A stretch of 64,000 nt of DNA from a phage. Numbering within the stretch: position 1 is the stretch's first letter; each line of letters opens with the position of its first letter. The stretch is taken from assembly GCA_020241865.1 (NCBI GenBank), contig GCA_020241865.1_4709.1; one strand, 5' to 3'. Shown here piece after piece: positions 11,237 to 58,000 of this stretch. The position numbers and the translations under genes were made by a program. The notes beneath the pieces are model-generated. The model was not told the DNA's origin. It worked only from the letters and a program-made list of their open reading frames with translations, and did no database searches.

Positions 11237-11270
11237 TTTTTTCTATTCGCAACAATAAACGGCATAGAAA

Positions 11271-11300
11271 CCTCCCCCAACCCTTACGGGCTGAGGGAGG
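11271..11300 (-). terminator. GC-rich stem-loop, family member in inverted orientation (CCTCCC...GGGAGG around CCC-TTAC-GGG)
   Basis: Inverted repeat read from sequence; downstream of stop of gene 11400-13622 on minus strand. Confidence 0.5.
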
Positions 11301-11399
11301 CTGACTTATGTATCACGGTGCCGGATGAATGTCCGGTGCAATGAAACCATCCGCAACGTTGTCGTCAAGAATATCGTCCAACGAAGCAGCTACGGTAGT

Positions 11400-13622
11400 T
11401 CAGTTAGTCTGAACAGGCAGCTTGATGTTTTCAGTGTAGACCTTACGCAGGTTCACAACGTTAATCAGACCCAGCAGCGGGCAGTTGTTAACGAAGCGGC
11501 AGCGCGGCTGAACCATGGTTTCTTTAGAAACCTGACCGTTACGGGTAACCTGAGCAACAGATACCAGTTCCGGTACATACAGGAACATACCGAAGGTCAG
11601 CGGATCCGGAGAACCCTGGATACCACGAGACAGGGTCACGAAGATCTTATCGCGCAGCATGACGTTCGGGTTATCTACAACCACGAAGTTGAAGCTTACA
11701 CCAACGGTGCGGAAATCACCATCGGTCTGCAGGAACTGCGGGATGTAGTTGTCAGTTGCTACTACGCAACGCGGTTTCTCATCAGCGTTGGAAGACAGCA
11801 GCTGCAGAGCTGGCTGATAACCAGACTCGGAGTACATGCGGTATGCCATCTCACGAATCACGTTCATGATCGCAGCAGACACTTCAGCACGACGTTCTGC
11901 AGTGGTGGTACCCTGAACAGATTTCTCCAGGTCCAGATTGATTTCTTCGAACCACGGACGGATCAGGTAACGACCGAAACCTTCGATCTGGATGTCGCCG
12001 AACTGACGGAAGCGAGAGGTCGCAACCGCTTTCAGTGCGTCTTTGTAGCTGAACAGTTTCTCAACCATCAGGTTGTCGAAACGTGCGTTAGCAGCTTGGA
12101 TCAGAACGTCCAGGTCAGCAGCGTTTTCTTCCCAATCCAGCGGACGAGGAATGGAGAACGGAGCCAGCAGGCCGATTGCGTAACGTTCTTGCTTCATGTT
12201 GAAGTCAAGGTGCTTACCGCGCTCACGACGGTTGCTGTTGTTACGGCGGATACGCAGTTCGTAACCAACCAGTTTGAAGCTCAGGTCTTCAGCCAGTTGT
12301 TTGAACTCTTCGCTCTTACGCGGTTGTTCGATGTTGTCCTGATCAACCAGGCGATACAGTTCAGCGTTAGCGCCGTTAACACGCAGACCGGCTTTCTCTA
12401 CGTTGGAAGAACCGTAAACTTCGATCGCCAGCTGAGCAGCAGATTTCGCATCGATGATGTCCTGCAGCGCTTCAGCTTTCGCGCCTTTAACGTCTTTGGT
12501 GTTCTCATCAACGAAGATGGAGTGGGTGTCGAACGCCAGGGTCATTTTGCGGAAGTCGCCTTCCAGGGATTTCTGGAAACCGTTGGTGATCAGACCAGAT
12601 ACGTCGAACGGTACGTAAGAGGTTTTGCTGTGCTTGGTAGATTTGATTTCCACCAGGATTTTGGTCAGCGTGATCTGGGCGTCCAGCGCGTCGGTGTTGT
12701 CGCTGTAACCGTTAGCCAGGATGCTATCGTCTTCAGCAATACCGATCATGTCGATCAGTTTATCAACAGCCAGGTAAGACGTTTTGTAAGTTACGCCTTT
12801 AATTTCGATGTCGCGCGGAGCAACGATAGCTTTGTCAACGAAGTACTGTGCGTTAGCATCGTCAGCACGATAGATCGGATGCAGATCGGTCACGTCGTTG
12901 GACAGAACGTCGTTGTACATGAACGCATCCAGCAGCGGACGACGTACCCAATCAGCCGGAGTACCGTCAGCGTTACGACGCAGGTGGTTGAACACCAGCG
13001 GACGACGGAAAGATACGTCGTAACCGATCTGGTTCGGAGCCAGAACGATGGTGTTGTACAGTTCGTTACCCATGCGGCTCAGACGAGAAGCCTTCACGTT
13101 GAACACAACGGAGTACGGCATCATGTCACGCAGTTCTTTCTGGTCGTAGGACAGCTGAACCAGTTCTTCAGATTCGCAACCGCAGGAATCAGCAGCCATC
13201 ATGACGAAGTTAGAGCTGTCAACTTCACGGCCAGACGGAGTGGTGCTGATGTTCATGGAACGTGCTTGTTTAGCATATTCTACCGGGTTACCATGAGCCA
13301 GCATGATCAGTGCTGCTGCACGAGCCTGCTGTGCGTTCATGGTGAACAGCTGTTCTTCAATACGCTGCTTCTCTTCCGGAGTGGTGGTTTCGAAGCCCAG
13401 CATGGACAGAACCGGTTCTTCGGCTTTACGGATGTCGCTGCTGAAGCTCTTAACATCCATTTCGTTAACCAGTTTGTCCATGGATTTGAAATCAACCTTA
13501 GAAGCAGATTCCATAGACAGGAAGGTGTTCTCCAGACCTTTGTCTGCTGGTTTGCTACCATTAGCGGTCAGGAACTGGCGAGTGGCCGCGACCTGTTGGC
13601 TAAGAAGGGTTTTATCATTCAT
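11400..13622 (-). CDS. highly expressed virion protein, candidate major capsid protein (740 aa)
   Basis: ORF track; ATG 13622 with AAAGGA upstream; strong codon bias (CTG, CGT, GGT, GAA dominate) and a 766-aa stop-free antisense frame; size fits jumbo-phage capsid proteins; no motif-level proof. Confidence 0.85.
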   Translation of the reverse strand: MNDKTLLSQQVAATRQFLTANGSKPADKGLENTFLSMESASKVDFKSMDKLVNEMDVKSFSSDIRKAEEPVLSMLGFETTTPEEKQRIEEQLFTMNAQQARAAALIMLAHGNPVEYAKQARSMNISTTPSGREVDSSNFVMMAADSCGCESEELVQLSYDQKELRDMMPYSVVFNVKASRLSRMGNELYNTIVLAPNQIGYDVSFRRPLVFNHLRRNADGTPADWVRRPLLDAFMYNDVLSNDVTDLHPIYRADDANAQYFVDKAIVAPRDIEIKGVTYKTSYLAVDKLIDMIGIAEDDSILANGYSDNTDALDAQITLTKILVEIKSTKHSKTSYVPFDVSGLITNGFQKSLEGDFRKMTLAFDTHSIFVDENTKDVKGAKAEALQDIIDAKSAAQLAIEVYGSSNVEKAGLRVNGANAELYRLVDQDNIEQPRKSEEFKQLAEDLSFKLVGYELRIRRNNSNRRERGKHLDFNMKQERYAIGLLAPFSIPRPLDWEENAADLDVLIQAANARFDNLMVEKLFSYKDALKAVATSRFRQFGDIQIEGFGRYLIRPWFEEINLDLEKSVQGTTTAERRAEVSAAIMNVIREMAYRMYSESGYQPALQLLSSNADEKPRCVVATDNYIPQFLQTDGDFRTVGVSFNFVVVDNPNVMLRDKIFVTLSRGIQGSPDPLTFGMFLYVPELVSVAQVTRNGQVSKETMVQPRCRFVNNCPLLGLINVVNLRKVYTENIKLPVQTN

Positions 13623-13771
13623 TGAAAGTATCCTTTACAGAATTAACTTATATAAGTCGGTCGATAGACCATAGCGTACACGCGTGCATGCGCCACTATA
13701 GTATCAGTAAACACTTACCGTTATTGAGGTCGTGATACAACACTAAAAATGCCGCATAACTTTTCCCTACG

Positions 13772-16922: not shown

Positions 16923-17492
16923 TTAGACGATGAGTGACCAGGTAGTAAGCACCCCGCTTGCGAATTCGAGCTTAAGACGTTTACCGATAAGTTGTTGCTG
17001 GATCATCTTCTCGGTGATACGTCGATCATGCTGAACCGCTTTATCAAACGCTTCTTTCGCTTCAGCTTGGTAGAAGTTCGTTTCTTCGTTTTCGTCGATC
17101 TCTTCGAGAGCATCGTCGTCGATGTCAGCAAGTTTCACTCGACCGTTTTCATCAGGTTGTTCTGCAGGTTCATTGTCATACGGCGTGTCTTTTGTTGGTG
17201 CGACACGATGTTGCAACTCGACCTGCGTTAACATGATCTCCATCTCACCATCGATAGGAATGATTTCATCGGCGCTGCCGTTTTCGGTCAACTCTCGACT
17301 TTCCAGTAATGTCGTCGTAACAGAGAACACCTCTTCAACAGGAACCTCATCATCGTCGATAGTGTTAACCGTATTGCTGGTAACTTCGGCAACGACCATC
17401 AAATCGAATGCGTGAGGATCGCCTGGCATTTTGATTCCTGGAAGTTTGTTGAGGTACCAAGGATCGAGAATCATGATTTCTGGATTGAACAT
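16923..17492 (-). CDS. hypothetical acidic protein (189 aa)
   Basis: ORF track; ATG 17492 with AAAGG upstream. Confidence 0.7.
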   Translation of the reverse strand: MFNPEIMILDPWYLNKLPGIKMPGDPHAFDLMVVAEVTSNTVNTIDDDEVPVEEVFSVTTTLLESRELTENGSADEIIPIDGEMEIMLTQVELQHRVAPTKDTPYDNEPAEQPDENGRVKLADIDDDALEEIDENEETNFYQAEAKEAFDKAVQHDRRITEKMIQQQLIGKRLKLEFASGVLTTWSLIV

Positions 17493-17567
17493 CGTTTTTA
17501 CCTTTCTATGTTAGGTGGATTGCGGATAGAAGAATCAATGCATAGACTGATTTAAGTTTGTTAAGGT

Positions 17568-18470
17568 TTACTTAGTCTTCGAGTTACAAGGACTGACATG
17601 TTGTTGTACTCGTTGAATCGTATCGTAGTACGGGTTAGATTGGTTGAACATGCTGTTGTGTGGATGATAGCCGTATGGCGCATTTTGCCTTGTTGATGAG
17701 AAACCTTGTTGAGAAGGACGATTTGAATTAACCGCGAGTACGTAGTAAACCAAATTTTGACGGTCGAACGTTCCTTCGTTTTTGAAGGTGTCGGCGTAGG
17801 TGTTTATCGCTGGAGCGAGTCTATCACCATCGGCGGTAATAATTGTACCGTCTGGGTAAACTTCACGAACGACGCACCATGTTCCGATAAGAACGTCTTT
17901 GGGCGGCGTATTGCCGTATCCGGTTGTAACGGTAAGGTAAGTATCGAACCCTTCAGAACAACAAGGATGACGATAGATAGGTCCTGTCATTTCCGTTCTA
18001 TCGGTATCGTCGCATTTCTCTATCGAGAGCGATGGTGTGTCGGTTTTGAAATTGTCAAATTCTTTCTTTAAGTCGATTACAGGTTCTTTCGTATAGTACT
18101 TCTTGATTGCTTTGACGTAAAGATCAGGAACGGTTGTCAGCATTCCGTTATACCTGATTCTCAGGTTTTCGAGTAATCCAAAGATACTCGCGCATGCTTG
18201 TTCGCGAGGTTTTGTAAGATAAGAGATCCCCCCAGGAACGCTGGGATCTTTGAGAAAGAAGATTGCGTTATTGTCGTTGTGCAGTGCGTTGAAGAAAACG
18301 ATTGATTCGATATATACGGAGCATAGGCTGTCGTTGGCGTCGTCAGATAACACCCAGATGCACTCATCGGTCGTCTTGTTTAAAAGTTCTGTTTTGTCCA
18401 CCAAACGTTGTTTCATTGCGAGGAAATGTGCCTGTTGTTCAGCGGATAATTCACGATAAATAGTGGTCAT
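17568..18470 (-). CDS. hypothetical protein, tandem paralog of 18556-19329 (about 300 aa)
   Basis: Track ORF 17568-18548 trimmed to ATG 18470 (AAGGAG 6 nt upstream); shares IY-HP-C...YL-T-G and REVYPDG-I motifs with neighbour. Confidence 0.8.
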   Translation of the reverse strand: MTTIYRELSAEQQAHFLAMKQRLVDKTELLNKTTDECIWVLSDDANDSLCSVYIESIVFFNALHNDNNAIFFLKDPSVPGGISYLTKPREQACASIFGLLENLRIRYNGMLTTVPDLYVKAIKKYYTKEPVIDLKKEFDNFKTDTPSLSIEKCDDTDRTEMTGPIYRHPCCSEGFDTYLTVTTGYGNTPPKDVLIGTWCVVREVYPDGTIITADGDRLAPAINTYADTFKNEGTFDRQNLVYYVLAVNSNRPSQQGFSSTRQNAPYGYHPHNSMFNQSNPYYDTIQRVQQHVSPCNSKTK

Positions 18471-18517
18471 GTTGAGCTCCTTGATTACGATAAGGATGAT
18501 TGCGGTTTTGTGATGCT

Positions 18518-18546
18518 GGTAGGGCCCTAAACAAAGGAGCCCTACC
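18518..18546 (-). terminator. stem-loop GGTAGGGC/GCCCTACC between tandem paralogs
   Basis: 8-bp inverted repeat with 13-nt loop in the spacer between stop 18556 and start 18470. Confidence 0.5.
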
Positions 18547-18555
18547 AATATTGGG

Positions 18556-19329
18556 TTACTCAGGATCGGCGTAGAAATGGTGAGGATAGCCGGAGTACGA
18601 TCCCGCGTTACCGGCTATGGATTCTTTCTGGGAATCGACGACGAGCGCATAGAACTGTCGGGAATTTGTTAGCGTTGAGAAATAAGCGGAAAGGACTTTT
18701 TCATTCAACGCATCGCAAGGTAGACAGGTGCGACCGCAAAACGTCACGATACGGCCGTCGGGATAGATCTCACGAATCATTCTCCACTCACCGATATCCA
18801 CTGGTGATGGCGCTGCTACACCACCTGTTATCGTTAAGTAACGATCGTACGTGGTATGGCATTCAGGATGAATATAGATCGGCTTGTTCGTTTCGACAGG
18901 TTCCGAAGTATCTCGACGACTAAGAAGCTCAACGACTTCAAGATAAATCGTTGGTAGATCGCGGAGAATACCGGTGCTACGACGTTTCTTTGTGATTCGC
19001 GGACGAATCTCGTTGAGAGCGTATTCGAGCTTACGTTCAGCTTCGTACGCATCGAGTTTTATCAGGCGACCCGGTTCATCGGAATGATCCTGAGTTACGT
19101 AAACGAAATACGCGTTGCCTTTTGCAGCGTGAAAGATTCGAGCGACCTTAAATGTTTCTACGGTACGATACCCAAGGCGCGATTGATTTTCCACAGGAGA
19201 AAATATCCAATGTCGTCCTTCGTCCGCCTCAACAATTTCGTTGAAACTATCCGTTTGTTCTGGGACCTGGTAGTCAGCCATTAATGTATCAAGAGCGTCG
19301 TCAGCCAGTTTGATGTAAATATCTGTCAT
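18556..19329 (-). CDS. hypothetical protein, tandem paralog of 17568-18470 (about 258 aa)
   Basis: Track ORF runs to 19542 through the intergenic stem-loop and promoter-like motif; ATG 19329 has GAGGA upstream and begins MTDIYIKL, matching MTTIYREL of the paralog. Confidence 0.8.
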   Translation of the reverse strand: MTDIYIKLADDALDTLMADYQVPEQTDSFNEIVEADEGRHWIFSPVENQSRLGYRTVETFKVARIFHAAKGNAYFVYVTQDHSDEPGRLIKLDAYEAERKLEYALNEIRPRITKKRRSTGILRDLPTIYLEVVELLSRRDTSEPVETNKPIYIHPECHTTYDRYLTITGGVAAPSPVDIGEWRMIREIYPDGRIVTFCGRTCLPCDALNEKVLSAYFSTLTNSRQFYALVVDSQKESIAGNAGSYSGYPHHFYADPE

Positions 19330-19380
19330 GTTTGTATCCTCGGCTATTAAGAGAAATTTACAGTGATAACAGTAACCGTT

Positions 19381-19416
19381 GTTATCACCTAGGTAATATA
19401 GTCGCGAAATAAACTG
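19381..19416 (-). promoter_or_regulatory. conserved promoter-like motif copy 1 (minus strand CAGTTTATTTCGCGACTATATTACCTAGGTGATAAC)
   Basis: Near-identical 33-nt copy at 57405-57437; contains TATATTAC; about 50 nt upstream of ATG 19329 and just downstream of stem-loop 19434-19465; adjacent inverted repeat TGATAACA-N8-TGTTATCA at 19364-19387. Confidence 0.5.
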
Positions 19417-19433
19417 GGTTAGACAGTATATGA

Positions 19434-19465
19434 CCCTCTCCCAACCCGTAAGGGAAGGGAGAGGG
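19434..19465 (-). terminator. GC-rich stem-loop CCCTCTCCC-AA-CCC-GTAA-GGG-AA-GGGAGAGGG (family member)
   Basis: Perfect inverted repeat starting 5 nt after stop of gene 19470-20837. Confidence 0.65.
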
Positions 19466-19469
19466 AATA

Positions 19470-20837
19470 TTAAACGGTTGGACGAACAGTATTGTCTTTT
19501 TCTGGTGCAATCCATAACGTGACTGTACCATGGCATGTCCACTGCGGTTCACGCACAGAAGAACCTGCCATTGTAACAGCGCAATCGGTACGCATGATAA
19601 CCCCGTATGCTTCGCAGAGATTGTTATCCTGCATCCACACAACTTTAGCGGGCATGCCAGGATACAACAAATCCATGTTTGCGTATTCCCACACCAACTG
19701 CATCGTTCTACCGCGTAATCCGGCAGTATTGCTTAATTCACGCCATCGGTTATCGGTTACGCGTCCCATCCCTTTCGCCACTTTCACGTTATCGCTACGT
19801 TCTTCAGTTACGTACTCGCTAACGTTTACGGTACGACTGATGATCGTATCACCCCCTTTTGATAATGTCATTCCCTGACTCATCTGACTTGCCGAAACAA
19901 AACGCCCACCCGCATTACCTAACAACGAAGCCGCGTTATTGATGTCGCTTACCGACGCCCCTCTCGTACACGCAATTTCCACGTATTTGTCACGATTGAT
20001 CCAGGTCTTGTCCATGCCCGGAAACATATCGGCAGGATAGTTGTAAAAGATCGCCGTGCGCCGACCGTCAGAGAAACGGGTTTCGTCGTATAAGGGGTAG
20101 ATATACAGATACGGGGATTGATAATAACAACCGACGTCAGCTGAATAAATACCGACCTGGTTCTGTATTTTATCTACGAGATCCATCGCATTGGTACCGT
20201 GTGGAAGAATAAGCAACTTGAATGGGTTGTCGTTATTCGGTGCAACAATATCCACACCCTGCATTTTGAATCCGGTGTCAGCTTCAACCGCAGAAAGTAT
20301 CTTGCTGAATTCAAGTCGCAGTACATCCAGCACTTTCGACCCAGTATAGTTCTCACCGGTTTCTGATTGCATGAAGCTTTCAAGAACAGGATCGAACAGT
20401 TGAAATTGAAGATCGACCATTTGTTCGTAGTCTTTCTTCGAAGAATCGGTTGCGGTACGTTCGTCGGTAGCGGACATACGACTGTCTACGGTTGTTAAAC
20501 AAACCGCTCGGTAGACGTAAGCTTGTGCGGCATCGTCTACGGTTTGGCGTTGTCCGCGCATCAGGCTGTACGCCTGCACGATGATGCGCATTTTAAGTTG
20601 TTGTTGGTACGGTAGAATGTATTTTCCGTAACTGCCGGGCGGGAACTTTACAGAGATATAGAGTTCATCTCCAGCGTTACGTTCATAGTCTCGATACGTG
20701 TGGACTTGAGTCACTAAAGGAACAGACACCGTCATTGACGGCGTGATTAATTCCGCGGTGACTTTATACGCAACAGCAACTGCTTCCTGCGCAAATGTAC
20801 CGATATACCGTCCTAACGGCGTCTGTTTGTAATCCAT
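19470..20837 (-). CDS. hypothetical protein (455 aa)
   Basis: ORF track; ATG 20837. Confidence 0.85.
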   Translation of the reverse strand: MDYKQTPLGRYIGTFAQEAVAVAYKVTAELITPSMTVSVPLVTQVHTYRDYERNAGDELYISVKFPPGSYGKYILPYQQQLKMRIIVQAYSLMRGQRQTVDDAAQAYVYRAVCLTTVDSRMSATDERTATDSSKKDYEQMVDLQFQLFDPVLESFMQSETGENYTGSKVLDVLRLEFSKILSAVEADTGFKMQGVDIVAPNNDNPFKLLILPHGTNAMDLVDKIQNQVGIYSADVGCYYQSPYLYIYPLYDETRFSDGRRTAIFYNYPADMFPGMDKTWINRDKYVEIACTRGASVSDINNAASLLGNAGGRFVSASQMSQGMTLSKGGDTIISRTVNVSEYVTEERSDNVKVAKGMGRVTDNRWRELSNTAGLRGRTMQLVWEYANMDLLYPGMPAKVVWMQDNNLCEAYGVIMRTDCAVTMAGSSVREPQWTCHGTVTLWIAPEKDNTVRPTV

Positions 20838-24686: not shown

Positions 24687-24731
24687 CGCAGATTCCTGTT
24701 TGAAAGATAAGATATCACATGATGGTCGACA

Positions 24732-24768
24732 GCATAAAGCCCACCCCGAAGGGCGGGCTGTTTATGCG
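24732..24768 (-). terminator. stem-loop GCATAAAGCCCACCCC-GAA-GGGCGGGCTGTTTATGC (looser family relative)
   Basis: Imperfect inverted repeat whose CATAAA/TTTATG flanks also pair; between stop 24775 and start 24686. Confidence 0.5.
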
Positions 24769-32006: not shown

Positions 32007-33323
32007 TTAACCTTTGGTATAAGCTTTAACGAGAGTGTTGATAAATGAGGTCAATGCACGAAGATATTGGTAAGCGAATTGGTTTTCAATACGGTTCTCT
32101 TTACCGCAAAGCAGAATCGCGCGCTTAACGAGCTTAGGATAGATCTCAACGTACGGTTGGTAGCTCGCATCAAAATTCTGCTCGTTGAAGCGTTTCATGG
32201 TAACGTATTGGATGCGTTCCATGGTACGGATTTTATTACGAGAGAAGATCTCAGAGAAAGCACGCCCACGTTTTGTTACCATCAACAGATCTTTCGCGAA
32301 CGTCAGTTGTCGAACGCTACGCAAATCGTCAGGTGTCGGTAGGACGTACGTTTCCGGGTCACTATCCCATTCAATATCTTCAACGACAATATCCAAGTCG
32401 AGGTAACGTTTAACAGCATCGATGATATTGTCTTTTGACGCATCGAATTCTTTCAAGAAGACCGCACCGTTGACATAACGGATACGTTTTCCGGAAACCG
32501 TTGGAGTGATAACGTCAGTACCTTCCACAGAACCGCGATTTTCCAGTGTCGATTTGACAGCGTTCAAGAAAGTCAGATAATCAACGGGAAGTTTTTCAAC
32601 CTTATCTAAATGGAAGTCGATGATGTTTAACCCTAACCCATCAATAACTGAATAACCGTCCGATTTAAGGAACATCTGATTGAAGGTATCAATGTTGCTT
32701 TTCAGCGCGTCTACACCACCAACGTTGTTACGGTTAGGGAAAAGTGTCCGCCACTCCGCTTTAAACGCAACTTCTTTATTTTCCTCGTATTTGCCTTTAG
32801 GCATTTGTTCGAGGTCTGCAACGGCTTTCTGAAAATTGCGCGTCTCGTCGTAAACAAGACGGGTAAGCTTCTCGAAGGCTGCTGCCAGAGTCAGGGCAAT
32901 ATCAACGATGATATCCCAGATCTTTTTCATGGCTTTTACAACGGTGTCCTTAAACCCTTCAACAACCAAAGCTTCTCCAACCTCAACACGATCGGTTGGG
33001 GTCAGCAATGCTTCGGAGGGTAGACCCAGAGCAATCGATGCGGATTCTTGAACGTTACGAACTAATGCAACGTCACTGTAGTTAGCCGATTCGATAGTCG
33101 GAGCAACATCAAAACTGATTTCCCGCAGTGCAGCAACAGCAGGGAAAGCACGATCAAGTGCATCTTCATGTTCGTCGATTGTCGCTAAACGTAATTCAAC
33201 ACCATCGGCGTCGATGACTTCAGTGGTAGGCTCCACGGCAAGCGCCTCAGCAACAATAGGATCTTTTTCAAACGCCTCAAGGCTGATATCGCCCTGGGTC
33301 GCAAATAGCGGTATGTGTACCAT
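32007..33323 (-). CDS. paralog-family protein (about 438 aa)
   Basis: Track start 33347 is TTG; ATG 33323 has GGAGA upstream; motifs VRNVQESASIALGLPS and VEGFKDTVVKAMKKIWDII. Confidence 0.85.
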   Translation of the reverse strand: MVHIPLFATQGDISLEAFEKDPIVAEALAVEPTTEVIDADGVELRLATIDEHEDALDRAFPAVAALREISFDVAPTIESANYSDVALVRNVQESASIALGLPSEALLTPTDRVEVGEALVVEGFKDTVVKAMKKIWDIIVDIALTLAAAFEKLTRLVYDETRNFQKAVADLEQMPKGKYEENKEVAFKAEWRTLFPNRNNVGGVDALKSNIDTFNQMFLKSDGYSVIDGLGLNIIDFHLDKVEKLPVDYLTFLNAVKSTLENRGSVEGTDVITPTVSGKRIRYVNGAVFLKEFDASKDNIIDAVKRYLDLDIVVEDIEWDSDPETYVLPTPDDLRSVRQLTFAKDLLMVTKRGRAFSEIFSRNKIRTMERIQYVTMKRFNEQNFDASYQPYVEIYPKLVKRAILLCGKENRIENQFAYQYLRALTSFINTLVKAYTKG

Positions 33324-33371
33324 GTGTTGTCTCCAGTAATGATTCAAAAGATAAACCTGAGCGGCATAGAA

Positions 33372-33403
33372 CCCTCTCCCAACCCGTAAGGGAAGGGAGA
33401 GGG
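33372..33403 (-). terminator. GC-rich stem-loop CCCTCTCCC-AA-CCC-GTAA-GGG-AA-GGGAGAGGG (family member)
   Basis: Perfect inverted repeat between stop 33426 and start 33323. Confidence 0.65.
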
Positions 33404-33425
33404 GATATGTCAGTTTATTAACTGA

Positions 33426-41687: not shown

Positions 41688-44600
41688 TTATCTTACGTTA
41701 TTGCTGTTCTGCTGTTCGCTGAACCAACCATACACCTTGAGATCGGTACCGTATTTCAACGCGATATACGCATTCAGCGCAGCACAGAACAAAGACGCGA
41801 ATGCCCATATCAGCGAAGGATCAACATCTTCCGTTACCATTGGGAGAGTATTATCCGGTTCCCATGATGGAGAACTGTCCATGAACGTTGCGTACCATCC
41901 CCGCCGTTGTTCTTCGGTGGTAAAGTCGCTATGGGGTTCCAATGCTTCTTTTGCCAGACGTCGATATTCGAACATATGCGTTGCTAAAGCCGATGAGTTA
42001 CCAGATTCGCCTTCATAGTTCGGATCCACCGCATAACAGAGTTCTGTGGAATCTAACAAAGCAACCGCCTGTGTGATGTTGTCGGCAGTGCCTGCACCAT
42101 AGAGCTCGATAGACCGCGAAAGCTTTTCACAGAACGCATTTAACGCGGAAGGATTGGACACCTGAAGGTCAAGGCCTAATGTCCACGGATAGTTACTGAA
42201 TACGCCCGTAAACCGCGGCATAACACCCAACAGATGTTGTCCGATTACAGCACGGTTATAAACAGCCCGGTTATAGACTTGAAACGCAGCCTCCAAAGCT
42301 TGGTTATAATGACGACGAAGTTCGTCACGCGAGTTGCGGAATCTGTTTGCCGCAAGACTTGTGGCTGCGACGCTACAAACATCGTAATTGGTGGACGAGA
42401 GCACAGTTTCGTTAAGATCGAACGATTCCTGTTTCAACGATCCGCTAACCGCTGCTGCTTCGCTGTTTGCTTTATCGACAACAGTACTCAAAGCGTTGAT
42501 GTAACGTTTAGCTCGGACTTCCAGCCATTGTGCGATACCGAGAATATCCACCGCGGCTTTAGCAAGATCGCGTGCATTCACGATTTCGTTCTTCAACGCC
42601 CCTAAACCTTTATTTTCAGGCGTTGAGGCTTGTTGACGAATCATACTGTTCAACATGGTAAGCAGATTATCCAACTCATGTCCGCTGACCTTGTTGCGCG
42701 CATCGGTAATCGGCCCTTGCAGGAATTTACGACAACCGTCATTATACCGAATCAGTTTATCCACGTCGATGGATTCGTTCGTGGTTTCCTTGAACTGATT
42801 CTTTAATTCTTCACGGTAGTCGTGTATCTCGCTTGTAAGATTATCAACGGTGATACCATTGTGACCAAGAAGAACTTTACTGAAGTTGCCCTTCTCGAAC
42901 GCCAGTGCGATGTCTTCACGAATCTTAGCCAGTTTATCCTGATCTAATTCACGACCGTTTGACAGTTCTTTCACTTCAGCACTGATTATTGCTGCAACCG
43001 TTCCAAGGTTATCGGTAACCCCTTTGAACGTGCTTGACCAAACACTTCCCGCTTCAGCGTATTTTGCGATGGTCTGGATACCGACGCTATGTAACGACGC
43101 TAAACGTTTCTTCGTACCTTCGGTAAGCAATGCATCTTTAGCTCGCGTAAGTTGACTGTTATTGGCTTCCGCTTGCTGGATGGCCGCTTTCGCATTCCCG
43201 TTACGCCAGCTCTTAACCAACCAATCGACCAAACGTTTCAGGATGTTGATGGTATATTCCATCGTACGTCGTAACGTTTCCCATGCGCTTTCAGCGGTAT
43301 AGATCCCACCAACAGTGTACCCTTCCATCTTCAGCGCTTTGGTATCGGTTTGACGTGCCAACCATTCTACCGTCGCAGAACAAACGTTTACGAACGCCTC
43401 CAGGTAGTTGTAATAGGCCTCTGTTGCGGAGGTTTCGTTGAGCTTCGAATGCAGATAAAACTGTTCGTATAGCTCGTCGTCATCACCGAAGGCGTCGTAG
43501 TTCCACAGTTCGGTATCGCAGCCGGTACCACAGAAGACATCCGCCGTTGTAAACTCCTTAAGTGCTTTCGTTGCGTCGTTGGTCAGGAATTTACCTGTCT
43601 CAAGTACGTCGTCAACATTAAGTCTCGGGAGTTCGTCAGTAATTGGGTTTTCCAGCATCAACGTATTGAAGAACACGCTGTACTTGTATCCAAGCCATTT
43701 TGGATAACTGTTTTCAGATATCGTAGACGCCGGTTTGATTTTCTTGGCTTCAGCCAACGTGTCTTCTGCAACCTGATATTGGTTTTCCCCAGCTTTGATA
43801 CGTCGTAATGCTTTTTCTTCCAACTGTTTGAGTTTGGTGTGCCGTGCTTGAGCTGGAGCCTCAACCAGTTTTTGTACCGACCGCATGGCGGAAATCGCTT
43901 CTTTCAATGTGGTGATCGGCATACGAACTTTACCGTCATCGAAACTCAGCGCGCGAGCAATACGTCGACTTACAACAGGTTCGGTATGGATGTTTCTTTC
44001 TACCCACGATTTGTTTGCGTAGGTTTGCGTGATTTGCTGCTGGATCTTTTCAAGATAGCCCCAGCTTTTGGATGCTTTGCCGTCCAAAAGCGGATTAGGT
44101 CCTTTCTTATCAAAAAGCTTTTTGATAGGATCAAAGAAACCTTCTTGCACGAGATCGATACGGGTGTAACCATCAGCTGCTTCGATTTCTTCTTGGGTTT
44201 TATCCCAGAAGTCGTCGCTCTTTGCAGCAACCGCTGTATCTTTAATGTCCAGGATGATCTGACCCACCGTTTGCGCAAACAGCAAGGCCGCACGTACCGA
44301 TTGTGCGAACATCCGCTGATATTTGATTCGAACGCATTGCATCTGGGTTAGCAGATTCAGTTGCGCGATCCCATCCAAGGTGCTATCTTGAGCAAGTCCT
44401 TCAGCCTTAGCGATAACCTGTTTTACACGTTCAGCGACATCAACGTATTGCTGGCATACATCCCGCAGAATACGTGCTGCGAAGACCCCGGTACCGATAT
44501 AGTTCAACAGGTCTTTTAATGACCATTCAGACGGACAATCGGCTGGTGCGGTAGGGAGTAAGCAACCATCACCGTCCATGAATCGCTCTAATGCACTAAT

Positions 44601-52531: not shown

Positions 52532-52996
52532 TTAGATATCGTCATCCGTGGTGCCGTAGGACATATGCTGAATTAATTTTCTCGGCTCGATGAAAATACG
52601 ACATGTGATAAACACATCGGGATCGTATTGCTCCACGCAACGTCCGAAGGTTTGTTTTGCGGCTTGGCGCATCGATGTTATTTCCTGATCGTTCATCGCA
52701 TTATCGAATTCGATGTTGATCGCGATTTTATCGGGAAATAAATAGATAAAGTAATCGCCGCTGATACCACCATCATCAAAGTGACGTTCATTGTAGCACT
52801 GGACGAGCTTACCTTCACGTTCTTTCTGATACCACCCAAGGATACTATTAAGACCTCTGTCCACGCATTCGAATGCTTGAGTAATAACATCCTCAACGAC
52901 GGATGCAGGCGTGGGACCATTGAATAGACGATCTAAGCGCTTTTTCATCGATTTGGTTTTCTCGTTCATGATTTCTTTTCCTGTTATAATCGGCAT
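52532..52996 (-). CDS. small hypothetical protein (154 aa), small-gene island
   Basis: ORF track; ATG 52996 lies 4 nt after the 3' arm of stem-loop 53001-53030, which supplies the only SD-like sequence (GGGGAAGGG). Confidence 0.75.
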   Translation of the reverse strand: MPIITGKEIMNEKTKSMKKRLDRLFNGPTPASVVEDVITQAFECVDRGLNSILGWYQKEREGKLVQCYNERHFDDGGISGDYFIYLFPDKIAINIEFDNAMNDQEITSMRQAAKQTFGRCVEQYDPDVFITCRIFIEPRKLIQHMSYGTTDDDI

Positions 52997-53000
52997 ACAA

Positions 53001-53030
53001 CCCTTCCCCGGCCTGATGGCTAGGGAAGGG
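53001..53030 (-). terminator. GC-rich stem-loop CCCTTCCC...GGGAAGGG (family relative) overlapping the ribosome-binding site of gene 52532-52996
   Basis: Inverted repeat between stop 53045 and start 52996. Confidence 0.55.
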
Positions 53031-56912: not shown

Positions 56913-57338
56913 TTAATTCAGTGATGCATATAAGGCATAACGACTGTAGATCTCAACCGCCGGTCCGTTATGCGTTAACAGACCGTCTCGGCTGTAATAC
57001 TGGAAAAATGAATAACGTTTGTCGAAGTGATAAACAAAAGCAATGTCTTTGCCGTCAAAACCTGTGATGCGTGGTCTGTTTTTATCTAGCAATGCTTTGA
57101 CTTTTAACAGTGTTGCCGCACGTGCTTTAACGTTAGGGATCAAGCCATCACAATCGATATAAACAGTGTAACCTGTTTCAGATGTTGCGACGGTCGTATT
57201 GCGATTGACGCGGAAGATTTTTGTTTCGTATGTACTATCTTCAAGAATTGGGTTTTGTTTTTCGTATTTTCGTTTACGCAGAAATTCTACAACGGTGATA
57301 TAGTTAGCGGTAATATGCCCGGTTATAGCTTGTAACAT
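56913..57338 (-). CDS. small hypothetical protein (141 aa) downstream of promoter-like motif copy 2
   Basis: ORF track; ATG 57338 with AAAGGA upstream. Confidence 0.8.
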   Translation of the reverse strand: MLQAITGHITANYITVVEFLRKRKYEKQNPILEDSTYETKIFRVNRNTTVATSETGYTVYIDCDGLIPNVKARAATLLKVKALLDKNRPRITGFDGKDIAFVYHFDKRYSFFQYYSRDGLLTHNGPAVEIYSRYALYASLN

Positions 57339-57404
57339 CTTGACATCCTTTTATATTGGATTGGTTGCAATTGTCTTAAATAGATGATAAGATATTTTGC
57401 TCTT

Positions 57405-57437
57405 ATCACTAAGGTAATGTAGTCGCGAAATAAACTG
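57405..57437 (-). promoter_or_regulatory. conserved promoter-like motif copy 2 (minus strand CAGTTTATTTCGCGACTACATTACCTTAGTGAT)
   Basis: Near-identical to 19381-19416; adjacent inverted repeat TGATAAGA-N8-TCTTATCA at 57385-57408; about 67 nt upstream of ATG 57338. Confidence 0.5.
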
Positions 57438-57467
57438 CGTTAACACGAAATAAAAAACAGCATAGAA

Positions 57468-57507
57468 CCCTCCTCCCACATCCTTCAAGAGGACGGTGGG
57501 AAGAGGG
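57468..57507 (-). terminator. GC-rich stem-loop CCCTCCTCCC...GGGAAGAGGG (family member, enlarged loop)
   Basis: Inverted repeat with one mismatch, 6 nt after stop of gene 57513-57914. Confidence 0.55.
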
Positions 57508-57914: not shown

Positions 57915-57968
57915 GGAGTGCTTTTCCTATTTTTATTTTCTGCACAGGATAAATTCAACGGCATAAAG

Positions 57969-58000
57969 CCCTTCCCTGCCCTTATATGGGGCGGGAAGAG
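57969..58000 (-). terminator. GC-rich stem-loop CCCTTCCC...GGGAAGAG (family relative) with CATAAA/TTTATG flanks
   Basis: Imperfect inverted repeat in 214-bp spacer between stop 58129 and start 57914. Confidence 0.5.

Follow-up and report, generated by a model that had tools for sequence, protein, structure and literature searches.

Diverged tandem paralogs A and B of a Goslarvirus are one state of a genus-restricted, copy-number-variable gene array with a possible role in host interaction

In this study, which was based on a 64,000-nt stretch of phage DNA (GCA_020241865.1, contig GCA_020241865.1_4709.1; the whole stretch is called the window below) and on the comparison of one of its loci with related loci, we analysed two adjacent genes, A and B, that lie at positions 17568-19329. 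An earlier reading of the letters alone, which we call the original prediction, had described them as a tandem paralog pair that was separated by a stem-loop, and both of the open reading frames (ORFs) that it had named were found, each on the minus strand. Both genes are functional and have diverged as paralogs within an orphan family of two-domain proteins that is confined to the genus Goslarvirus. Together they represent one state of a cassette array that is restricted to this genus and varies in copy number, and Escherichia phage vB_EcoM_Goslar (hereafter Goslar) has itself lost this array. The two genes are as follows:

18556-19329, minus strand: gene B, 257 amino acids (aa) plus stop, N-terminus MTDIYIKLADDA, slot 1 of the array
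17568-18470, minus strand: gene A, 300 aa plus stop, N-terminus MTTIYRELSAEQ, last slot of the array

Because the genes are on the minus strand, the copy that appears as the second one in plus-strand coordinates is the upstream gene B, and transcription passes through B first and then, after a spacer of 85 nt, through A. The start of B was placed at the ATG at 19329 based on a GAGGA Shine-Dalgarno sequence, the conserved N-terminus MTDIY and the database annotation of 257 aa, while the ATG of A at 18470 is preceded by an AAGGAG Shine-Dalgarno sequence. Proteins that are identical to A and B are annotated in the public databases at 300 and 257 aa under the name 'hypothetical protein LGR16_001782/3 [Escherichia coli O157]', on a 239,671-bp contig. 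The mechanically called ORFs are longer. The one for B (18556-19542, GTG start, 328 aa) crosses a second hairpin and a promoter-like motif and reaches into the adjacent gene (455 aa) at its 3' end, and the one for A (17568-18548) crosses the hairpin between the genes. The original prediction was right that the ORF of its second copy had been over-extended through a stem-loop and a promoter-like motif, as is seen when 18556-19542 is set against the 257-aa annotation.

The relationship between the two proteins was well above background. In BLASTP, A and B aligned with an E-value of 4e-18 and 30% identity over 153 columns (A130-269 / B110-253), and this alignment covered the motifs that had been quoted in support of paralogy, i.e., IYRHPCCSEGFDTYLTV / IYIHPECHTTYDRYLTI and REVYPDGTIIT / REIYPDGRIVT. 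When the relatives were included, the family alignment extended the homology of A and B to their full length; its conserved positions in the N-half were M1, T2, Y5, L8, W39, P115 and Y118, and the C-half carried the block [IV]Y-x-H-P...D-x-Y-L-T...G-x-W..R-E-x-Y-P-D-G-x-I-x-T..G...P. The family hidden Markov model matched both of the window genes (E 1e-96 and 2e-114). With a similarity above chance, the same strand and only 85 nt between them, A and B form a tandem pair, which confirmed the paralogy that had been proposed.

Both proteins are acidic and soluble, and sequence prediction placed a transmembrane segment in neither of them. B consists of an alpha/beta N-domain (~1-137) and a small beta-rich C-domain (~150-232), the latter with a cysteine cluster, HPEC...CGRTCLPC, that is specific to the B-type members. 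A follows the same two-domain plan with a longer acidic linker and a C-terminal tail that is rich in Tyr, Pro and Asn. The AlphaFold2 (AF2) model of B had a mean confidence (pLDDT) of 68 (~85 in the N-domain, residues 1-137, and ~60 in the C-domain), and that of A reached 57. A zinc-finger, HNH or catalytic-cysteine role was rejected for the cluster as CGRTCLPC is found in the B-type only, C171 is not invariant and there was no Pfam match at E<=10.

The window belongs to a Goslarvirus, a nucleus-forming jumbo phage. Its flanks match Goslar at 95-96% nucleotide identity, the A-B pair itself has no match there, and the neighbouring genes encode a divergent DnaB helicase, a phiKZ-type major capsid protein and virion proteins. 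We compared the locus among the window, Goslar (L001) and 14 related loci (L002-L008 and L014-L020). The array occupied a fixed site between gp48, the last gene of the late baseplate/neck operon gp53-gp48, and gp46 in all 14 of the related loci, each of which had two or three family members, some of them consisting of the N-domain or the C-domain only. The 455-aa gene upstream of B is the homolog of Goslar gp48, the baseplate spike cap, with gp50 being the stopper and gp51 the tail terminator (bioRxiv 10.64898/2026.04.21.720040). In the order of transcription, the following architectures were found:

B-A: window, L002-L005, L018-L020
B-D: L006
B-C-D: L014, L015
B-C-(C-domain-only): L007, L008
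(N-domain-only)-B-A: L016, L017

Five forms of the family can be distinguished in these arrays:

B-type: 254-271 aa, with two N-domain variants (B1 and B2)
C-type: 286 aa (P0025)
D-type: 291-300 aa (P0026)
A-type: 277-300 aa, with a C-domain that by eye is closest to that of D, and in the same last slot
half-genes: N-only forms of 126-134 aa and C-only forms of 148-150 aa, each kept as several clusters

The N-domain variants B1 and B2 paired freely with A, C or D partners, and the truncated N-only and C-only forms occurred on many contigs. A position that is fixed between conserved genes and a content that varies among close relatives mark the site as that of an accessory cassette.

The comparison with Goslar revealed how the difference between the two genomes arose. 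Homology in blastn stopped at 17551 and restarted at 19325, which defined one replaced segment:

17552-19324: 1773 bp in place of 82 bp of Goslar, running from the second codon of B to 17 nt beyond the stop of A

At this site, Goslar has an in-frame ORF of 25 codons, MTLLIRDPSEYENTRYNHNQFGNNF (MK327938 49584-49661), the first 45 nt of which match the 5' end of a D-type gene at 40 of 45 positions and the last 33 nt of which match its 3' end at 32 of 33. Since this relic joins both ends of a D-type member, the array was lost from Goslar by deletion. The annotated gene gp047 of Goslar (62 aa; MK327938 49584-49772, L001 6264-6452) is over-extended through the terminator hairpin and the promoter-like motif. 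As a cultured phage with a solved virion structure that has only the 25-codon relic, Goslar demonstrates that the family is dispensable.

Further analysis showed that A and B evolve in a different way from the genes around them. The flanking proteins gp44-gp50 were 92-100% identical between the window and its relatives, compared with 58-96% for B and 28-97% for A. The ratios of non-synonymous to synonymous substitution (dN/dS), which were calculated using the Nei-Gojobori method for the window genes against their relatives, were as follows:

gp48 and gp46 (flanks): 0.02-0.03
A, whole gene: 0.15-0.34
B, whole gene: 0.16-0.38
C-domains: 0.00-0.17, with 0.31-0.46 only between near-identical A alleles (dS 0.03-0.05)
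N-domain of A against L002: 0.68

Both genes are coding and constrained, their non-synonymous evolution is roughly ten times faster than that of their neighbours, and they are under purifying selection that is weaker by a factor of about ten than in the flanking genes. Change is fastest in the N-domain, with the C-domain forming the conserved core. Against L008, dS was 0.17-0.20 in the flanks and 1.55 in B, which means that old alleles had moved onto a young backbone; as read from the sequences, divergent alleles reassort on one backbone and are exchanged by recombination.

The family is undescribed and has so far been annotated only as 'hypothetical protein'. A profile search with A and B in 5.8e9 proteins returned only 24 clusters, all without a Pfam domain, and the contigs of these clusters that were examined had Goslar-like contexts, several of them being ~240 kb long. 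Using HMMER in 1.84e9 representatives, we obtained four family representatives, a 40-aa family fragment and one spurious repeat protein; the latter, of 701 aa, was rejected as a distant relative since only a stretch of the RxxPDGxVxT type had matched. A word-index search with the wider alignment added further Goslarvirus forms only, and IMG/VR contained one family locus. No match was obtained using tblastn of A and B in 50,697 phage records, no member was found in the species genomes of GTDB, no further copy was present in Goslar or elsewhere in the window, and the 1.77-kb segment did not match any of the complete E. coli genomes and plasmids. Pfam had no match to A, B or any of the 26 members at E<=10, and neither PHROGs nor NCBIfam nor the PDB sequence profile matched the family. 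At the level of structure, Foldseek against the viral structures of BFVD gave a best E-value of 0.11, i.e., no significant relative, and there was no significant structural match to a PUA-like barrel (YTH, EVE or ASCH). The homology and structure searches did not reveal any similarity of the family to a structural protein. The family is restricted to Goslarvirus, whose members infect E. coli, Shigella and Salmonella. This genus was recently expanded from one to 237 genomes, which were recovered from assemblies of these three bacteria, and Goslarviruses have been detected in hundreds of clinical assemblies (PMC12768965). The origin of the genomes explains why the family homologs bear the names of host bacteria.

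The region upstream of B has a characteristic organisation, the elements of which are:

19434-19465, minus strand: GC-rich hairpin CCCTCTCCCTTCCCTTACGGGTTGGGAGAGGG, which ends the upstream late structural operon (455-aa gene)
19391-19415, minus strand: promoter-like motif copy 1, AGTTTATTTCGCGACTATATTACCT, core TAYATTACCT
19362-19389, minus strand: palindrome after motif copy 1, GGTGATAACA-N8-TGTTATCACT

In the order of transcription, the stop of gp48 is followed by the GC hairpin, by a TTCTATGC box in most of the relatives, by AGTTTATTTCGCGACTAYATTACCT at 19391-19415, by the palindrome GTGATAACA-N8-TGTTATCAC at 19362-19389 and, finally, by the Shine-Dalgarno sequence and the ATG of B. This layout was conserved in all of the loci that were examined; the box has decayed in the window, where it reads TCATATAC. 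The 25-nt motif AGTTTATTTCGCGACTAnATTACCT occurred at two sites in the window (19391-19415 and 57412-57436, both minus, with none expected by chance), and the core TAYATTACCT at three (0.13 expected). The second copy (57385-57436, minus) lies upstream of the gene at 56913-57338 and is also followed by a palindrome, GTGATAAGA..TCTTATCAT at about 57385-57410. The stems of the two palindromes differ on both sides (C:G to G:C; GATAACA/TGTTATC against GATAAGA/TCTTATC), and because of this two-sided change the motif-plus-hairpin unit appears to be conserved as a structure. The palindrome at 19362-19389 is likely a stem-loop of the 5' untranslated region or an operator. The original prediction had put copy 1 of the motif before the upstream copy of the pair; this holds for B (18556-19329), which is the upstream gene in transcription and the second copy in plus-strand coordinates only.

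In the Goslar genome, there were nine exact copies of TAYATTACCT, upstream of gp021, gp040, the relic, gp075, gp175, gp189, gp210, gp221 and gp236, and all nine lay between genes, pointed in the same direction as the gene downstream and had an A/T-rich run in front of them; by eye, a short hairpin directly followed several of them. Recurrence upstream of operons in the orientation of the genes is what is seen in early promoters. One of the genes in question, gp189, encodes chimallin (Pfam PF25677, E 4.8e-25). Previous studies showed that the early promoters of jumbo phages consist of conserved AT-rich motifs of ~10 nt upstream of early operons (PMC7598289) and that the chimallin gene of phiKZ has both an early and a middle promoter (PMC8244752). 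Based on these likenesses, TAYATTACCT can be considered a candidate chimallin-class (early or middle) phage promoter. No transcriptome or mapping of transcription start sites of a Goslarvirus was found in the literature, and a scan for sigma-70 promoters and terminators over 16-21 kb reported nothing relevant, with fewer promoter-like sites than in shuffled sequences.

Two further observations concern these upstream elements. The 32-nt hairpin sequence CCCTCTCCCTTCCCTTACGGGTTGGGAGAGGG was reused at a second operon end, at about 33375-33410 (minus), upstream of the gene at 32007-33347. In addition, the motif GGGYTYTATGCYG was found at seven sites on the minus strand of the window when up to one mismatch was permitted, compared with 0.22 expected:

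11260-11272, minus strand: GGGYTYTATGCYG site
24730-24742, minus strand: GGGYTYTATGCYG site
33362-33374, minus strand: GGGYTYTATGCYG site
42216-42228, minus strand: GGGYTYTATGCYG site
52991-53003, minus strand: GGGYTYTATGCYG site
57458-57470, minus strand: GGGYTYTATGCYG site
57959-57971, minus strand: GGGYTYTATGCYG site

It directly abutted a GC hairpin at the sites whose context was read and lay just upstream of two of the three TAYATTACCT sites of the window (11218 and 57412); at the third (19391), it has decayed to TCATATAC and is kept in most of the relatives. The motif holds the TATG of the phiKZ late promoters, but it might just as well form the end of a terminator that is specific to the phage.

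Between B and A, a different set of signals was found:

18516-18548, minus strand: B-A hairpin, GGUAGGGCUCC..GGGCCCUACC, with the core GGTAGGGC...GCCCTACC at 18518-18546
18476..18496, minus strand: leader of A, ATCATCCTTATCGTAATCAAGGAGC

The stem-loop that had been proposed between the copies proved to be a genuine GC-rich hairpin. The 90-nt stretch that contains it had a minimum free energy of -25 kcal/mol (z -3.26), and only one of 200 shuffled sequences was as stable. It was present in every B-A locus examined, with the stem being kept by compensatory changes, e.g., from GGGC/GCCC to GGGT/ACCC or to GGAC/GTCC, and in L002-L005 the whole hairpin had the opposite orientation to that seen in the window and L006. 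Such switches are not limited to this element. A comparison of the window with L002-L007 and L016 showed that both hairpins of the locus (18516-18548 and 19434-19465) occur in either orientation, the loop and the asymmetric positions being reverse-complemented in the inverted state (TCCTTTGTTTAGG against CCTAAACAAAGGA, CCCTTCCCTTACGGGTTGGG against CCCAACCCGTTAGGGAAGGG). To judge from these sequences, the switches are small inversions at inverted repeats.

Of the features of an intrinsic terminator, the B-A hairpin has the GC-rich stem-loop. It is followed by AGCAUCAC and not by a U-tract, and the terminator scan did not report it. The leader ATCATCCTTAYCGTAATCAAGGAGC before A is conserved and is predicted to form a small hairpin in which CCUUA pairs with the AAGGA of the Shine-Dalgarno sequence; the same element preceded the non-first family members in eight loci, and it may participate in translation control. 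A motif of the TAYATTACCT type was not recognisable between B and A. Since A has no promoter motif of its own and the hairpin has no U-tract, a common transcript with B, possibly attenuated at the hairpin, seems more likely for A than a timing of its own. The differential expression of the pair that had been suggested earlier is only plausible. The most economical reading is a single transcript of B and A, which the hairpin would partly terminate or stabilise at a 3' end, and independent timing of A was not supported.

Considering the above, what the products might do can be approached through the class of genes to which they belong, i.e., dispensable, genus-specific, fast-diversifying and recombining genes that head a small operon, which, by analogy with phiKZ, is probably early. 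Phage genes of such a class are usually host-interaction factors that participate in counter-defence, takeover or host-range adaptation. In the reading that we prefer, B and A would be transcribed from a chimallin-class promoter (early or middle) by the phage RNA polymerase, with the B-A hairpin acting as a partial terminator or an mRNA-stabilising element, so that B would be at least as abundant as A. The products would be dispensable, soluble, cytoplasmic host-interaction factors for counter-defence, host takeover or host-range adaptation; the variable N-domain would determine the target specificity, and the conserved C-domain would provide a common activity or the contact with a partner. 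A variable N-domain and a conserved C-domain, each of which also exists as a separate conserved gene, fit such a specificity-plus-effector design. Diversification may have been driven by an arms race together with the exchange of cassettes between co-circulating phages. We are highly confident in the observational part of this explanation, which includes the paralogs, the fixed and variable array, the reassortment, the selection and the layout of the motif and the hairpins. For the role in host interaction through specificity plus effector, the chances approach an even balance from below, and the statement as a whole, with the observations and the function taken together, is somewhat probable.

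A more far-reaching version, in which the array is a modular counter-defence or host-range system of Goslarviruses with a C-domain for a common activity or docking and interchangeable N-domains that recognise host immunity or takeover targets and are shuffled between phages, is doubtful, and we offer it tentatively. If it were true, the copy number and the combination of alleles would help to set which strains of Enterobacteriaceae can be infected or persisted in, and both of the domains could be new folds.

Several observations weigh against the preferred explanation. The sequence and fold similarity searches indicate no activity, and the AF2 models are of moderate confidence (pLDDT 57 for A and 68 for B, with the C-domain of B at ~60). 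The dN/dS values are below 1 everywhere, for the whole genes as well as for the domains, and fast evolution can be read as an arms race or, with the same right, as relaxed constraint. The pair adjoins virion genes, and the assignment of TAYATTACCT to an early or a middle class rests on the analogy with phiKZ. Moreover, most of the relatives have the TTCTATGC box, which includes the TATG of the phiKZ late promoters, between the terminator hairpin and the motif, and it is through this box that the pair may be expressed late. Such expression would suit proteins that are virion-associated or ejected, packaged by a shared N-terminal tag and active on the host at injection, as is the case for the polymorphic internal proteins that T-even phages encode in cassettes or for the inner-body paralogs of phiKZ. 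The genes do lie directly downstream of the baseplate/neck genes, and the extreme N-terminus MT[DT][IV]Y..L has been preserved in members whose N-domain has otherwise diverged to 33% identity. However, a strong hairpin and a separate chimallin-class motif stand between the pair and the structural operon, the virions of Goslar are complete without the family, the TATGC box that resembles the late promoter is mutated in the window and no similarity to any structural protein was found. We consider packaging unlikely. We regard as slightly less probable still that the products act in phage-phage competition, through superinfection exclusion or by interfering with relatives that co-infect the cell, and not on host defences. 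The reassortment of alleles shows that co-infection and recombination are frequent among Goslarviruses, the family is found only there and near-identical genomes carry different sets of its members, all of which agrees with competition; membrane segments and signal peptides, which are common in exclusion proteins, are nevertheless absent from A and B.

The two remaining alternatives concern the origin and the fate of the genes. A selfish insertion, such as a mobile cassette or a homing element, into the genome of the window would produce a 1773-bp presence/absence polymorphism with sharp borders like the one seen against Goslar, and the His/Cys clusters (HPEC..CGRTCLPC) of the B-type members might recall such elements. 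Yet the in-frame relic of Goslar, which retains the 5' and 3' ends of a D-type gene, gives the polarity as a deletion in Goslar, the array is at the same site in all 14 of the related loci, the cysteine cluster is missing from the A-, C- and D-type members and the Pfam and NCBIfam searches did not reveal any nuclease, integrase or transposase signature. A mobile insertion is largely excluded by the relic, and an origin of this kind is very improbable. Even less credible is that A and B are decaying, functionless duplicates that evolve neutrally. The family is dispensable in Goslar, truncated N-only and C-only forms exist and the constraint is relaxed relative to the flanks, as would be expected under decay, but the ORFs are intact in the window and in 14 of 14 related loci, the start contexts and the Shine-Dalgarno sequences are conserved and even the truncated forms have been kept, with several clusters of 148-150 aa and of 126-134 aa being spread over many contigs. 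With dN/dS at 0.15-0.38 overall and at 0.00-0.17 in the C-domain at dS of up to 1.5 (near-identical A alleles excepted), which is well below 1, the pseudogene reading is largely refuted.

In the neighbourhood of the array, three other features were observed. A 766-aa ORF at 11325-13625 (plus strand) runs antisense over the whole gene of the 740-aa major capsid protein (11400-13622, minus strand), which makes it an unusually long shadow ORF. The homolog of gp46 (16923-17492 in the window) has 189 aa in the window and some of the relatives and 168 aa in others, as was seen when L003 (7763-8408), L004, L006, L015, L016, L019 and L020 were compared with the window. In the case of the 168-aa calls, ATGTTTAATCCAGAAATCATG... 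(MFNPEIM...) can still be read in the 60-odd nt upstream, which points to either a frameshift or a different start site. Some relatives have an extra gene of 210 aa (MLSEIKKLNQW...; L003 5226-5858, L008 2371-3003, L016 2816-3448), which is not found in the window or Goslar. It starts 16 nt past the stop of gp48 and ahead of the terminator hairpin, which places it inside the late operon. An assignment to the ADP-ribosyltransferases, which the pattern YRG...SFT...QREY had suggested by eye, was not adopted: there was no support in Pfam or NCBIfam, and the weak PHROG match (E 0.0017) was to a family of unknown function.

Goslarviruses are model nucleus-forming phages, and since their backbones are near-identical, the few hypervariable sites are natural places for determinants of host range and counter-defence. 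The locus offers a natural null, Goslar, and a natural series of alleles and copy numbers, with which the question of function can be tested. The analysis also corrected gene starts, including that of Goslar gp047, and provided a candidate promoter motif for Goslarvirus that is shared with the chimallin gene.

As a phenomenon, tandem orphan paralogs in a variable accessory site are ordinary for a large phage genome. The hyperplastic regions of T4-like phages, with their ORFan cassettes linked to early promoters, and the phage 'morons' contain dispensable genes of unknown function that lie between core genes with signals of their own. The array resembles them in its position between conserved genes, its promoter- and terminator-like signals, its variability among relatives and its dispensability. 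In contrast to their mixture of unrelated ORFans, it consists of a single two-domain paralog family with domain-only derivatives, and its promoter class would be that of the multisubunit RNA polymerase of a nucleus-forming phage instead of host sigma-70. The internal proteins of T-even phages are late proteins that are packaged and undergo cleavage behind a capsid-targeting sequence. Their locus is similar in being a cassette between conserved genes, with a short conserved N-terminus and the exchange of alleles among related phages; the Goslarvirus members, however, share the whole C-domain, and the promoter-like motif of their array is the one that precedes chimallin. The paralogous families of phiKZ-like jumbo phages are likewise lineage-specific tandem duplicates in a chimallivirus genome, whereas the family described here belongs to one genus only, and no relation to any protein of the phiKZ group was found in sequence or fold. 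Finally, the putative promoter has its closest counterpart in the early promoters of phiKZ, which are recognised by the virion RNA polymerase (vRNAP): in both, a conserved AT-rich element of ~10 nt stands before operons that include the chimallin gene, while the sequence TAYATTACCT is specific to Goslarvirus, and only nine exact copies of the core were found in Goslar.

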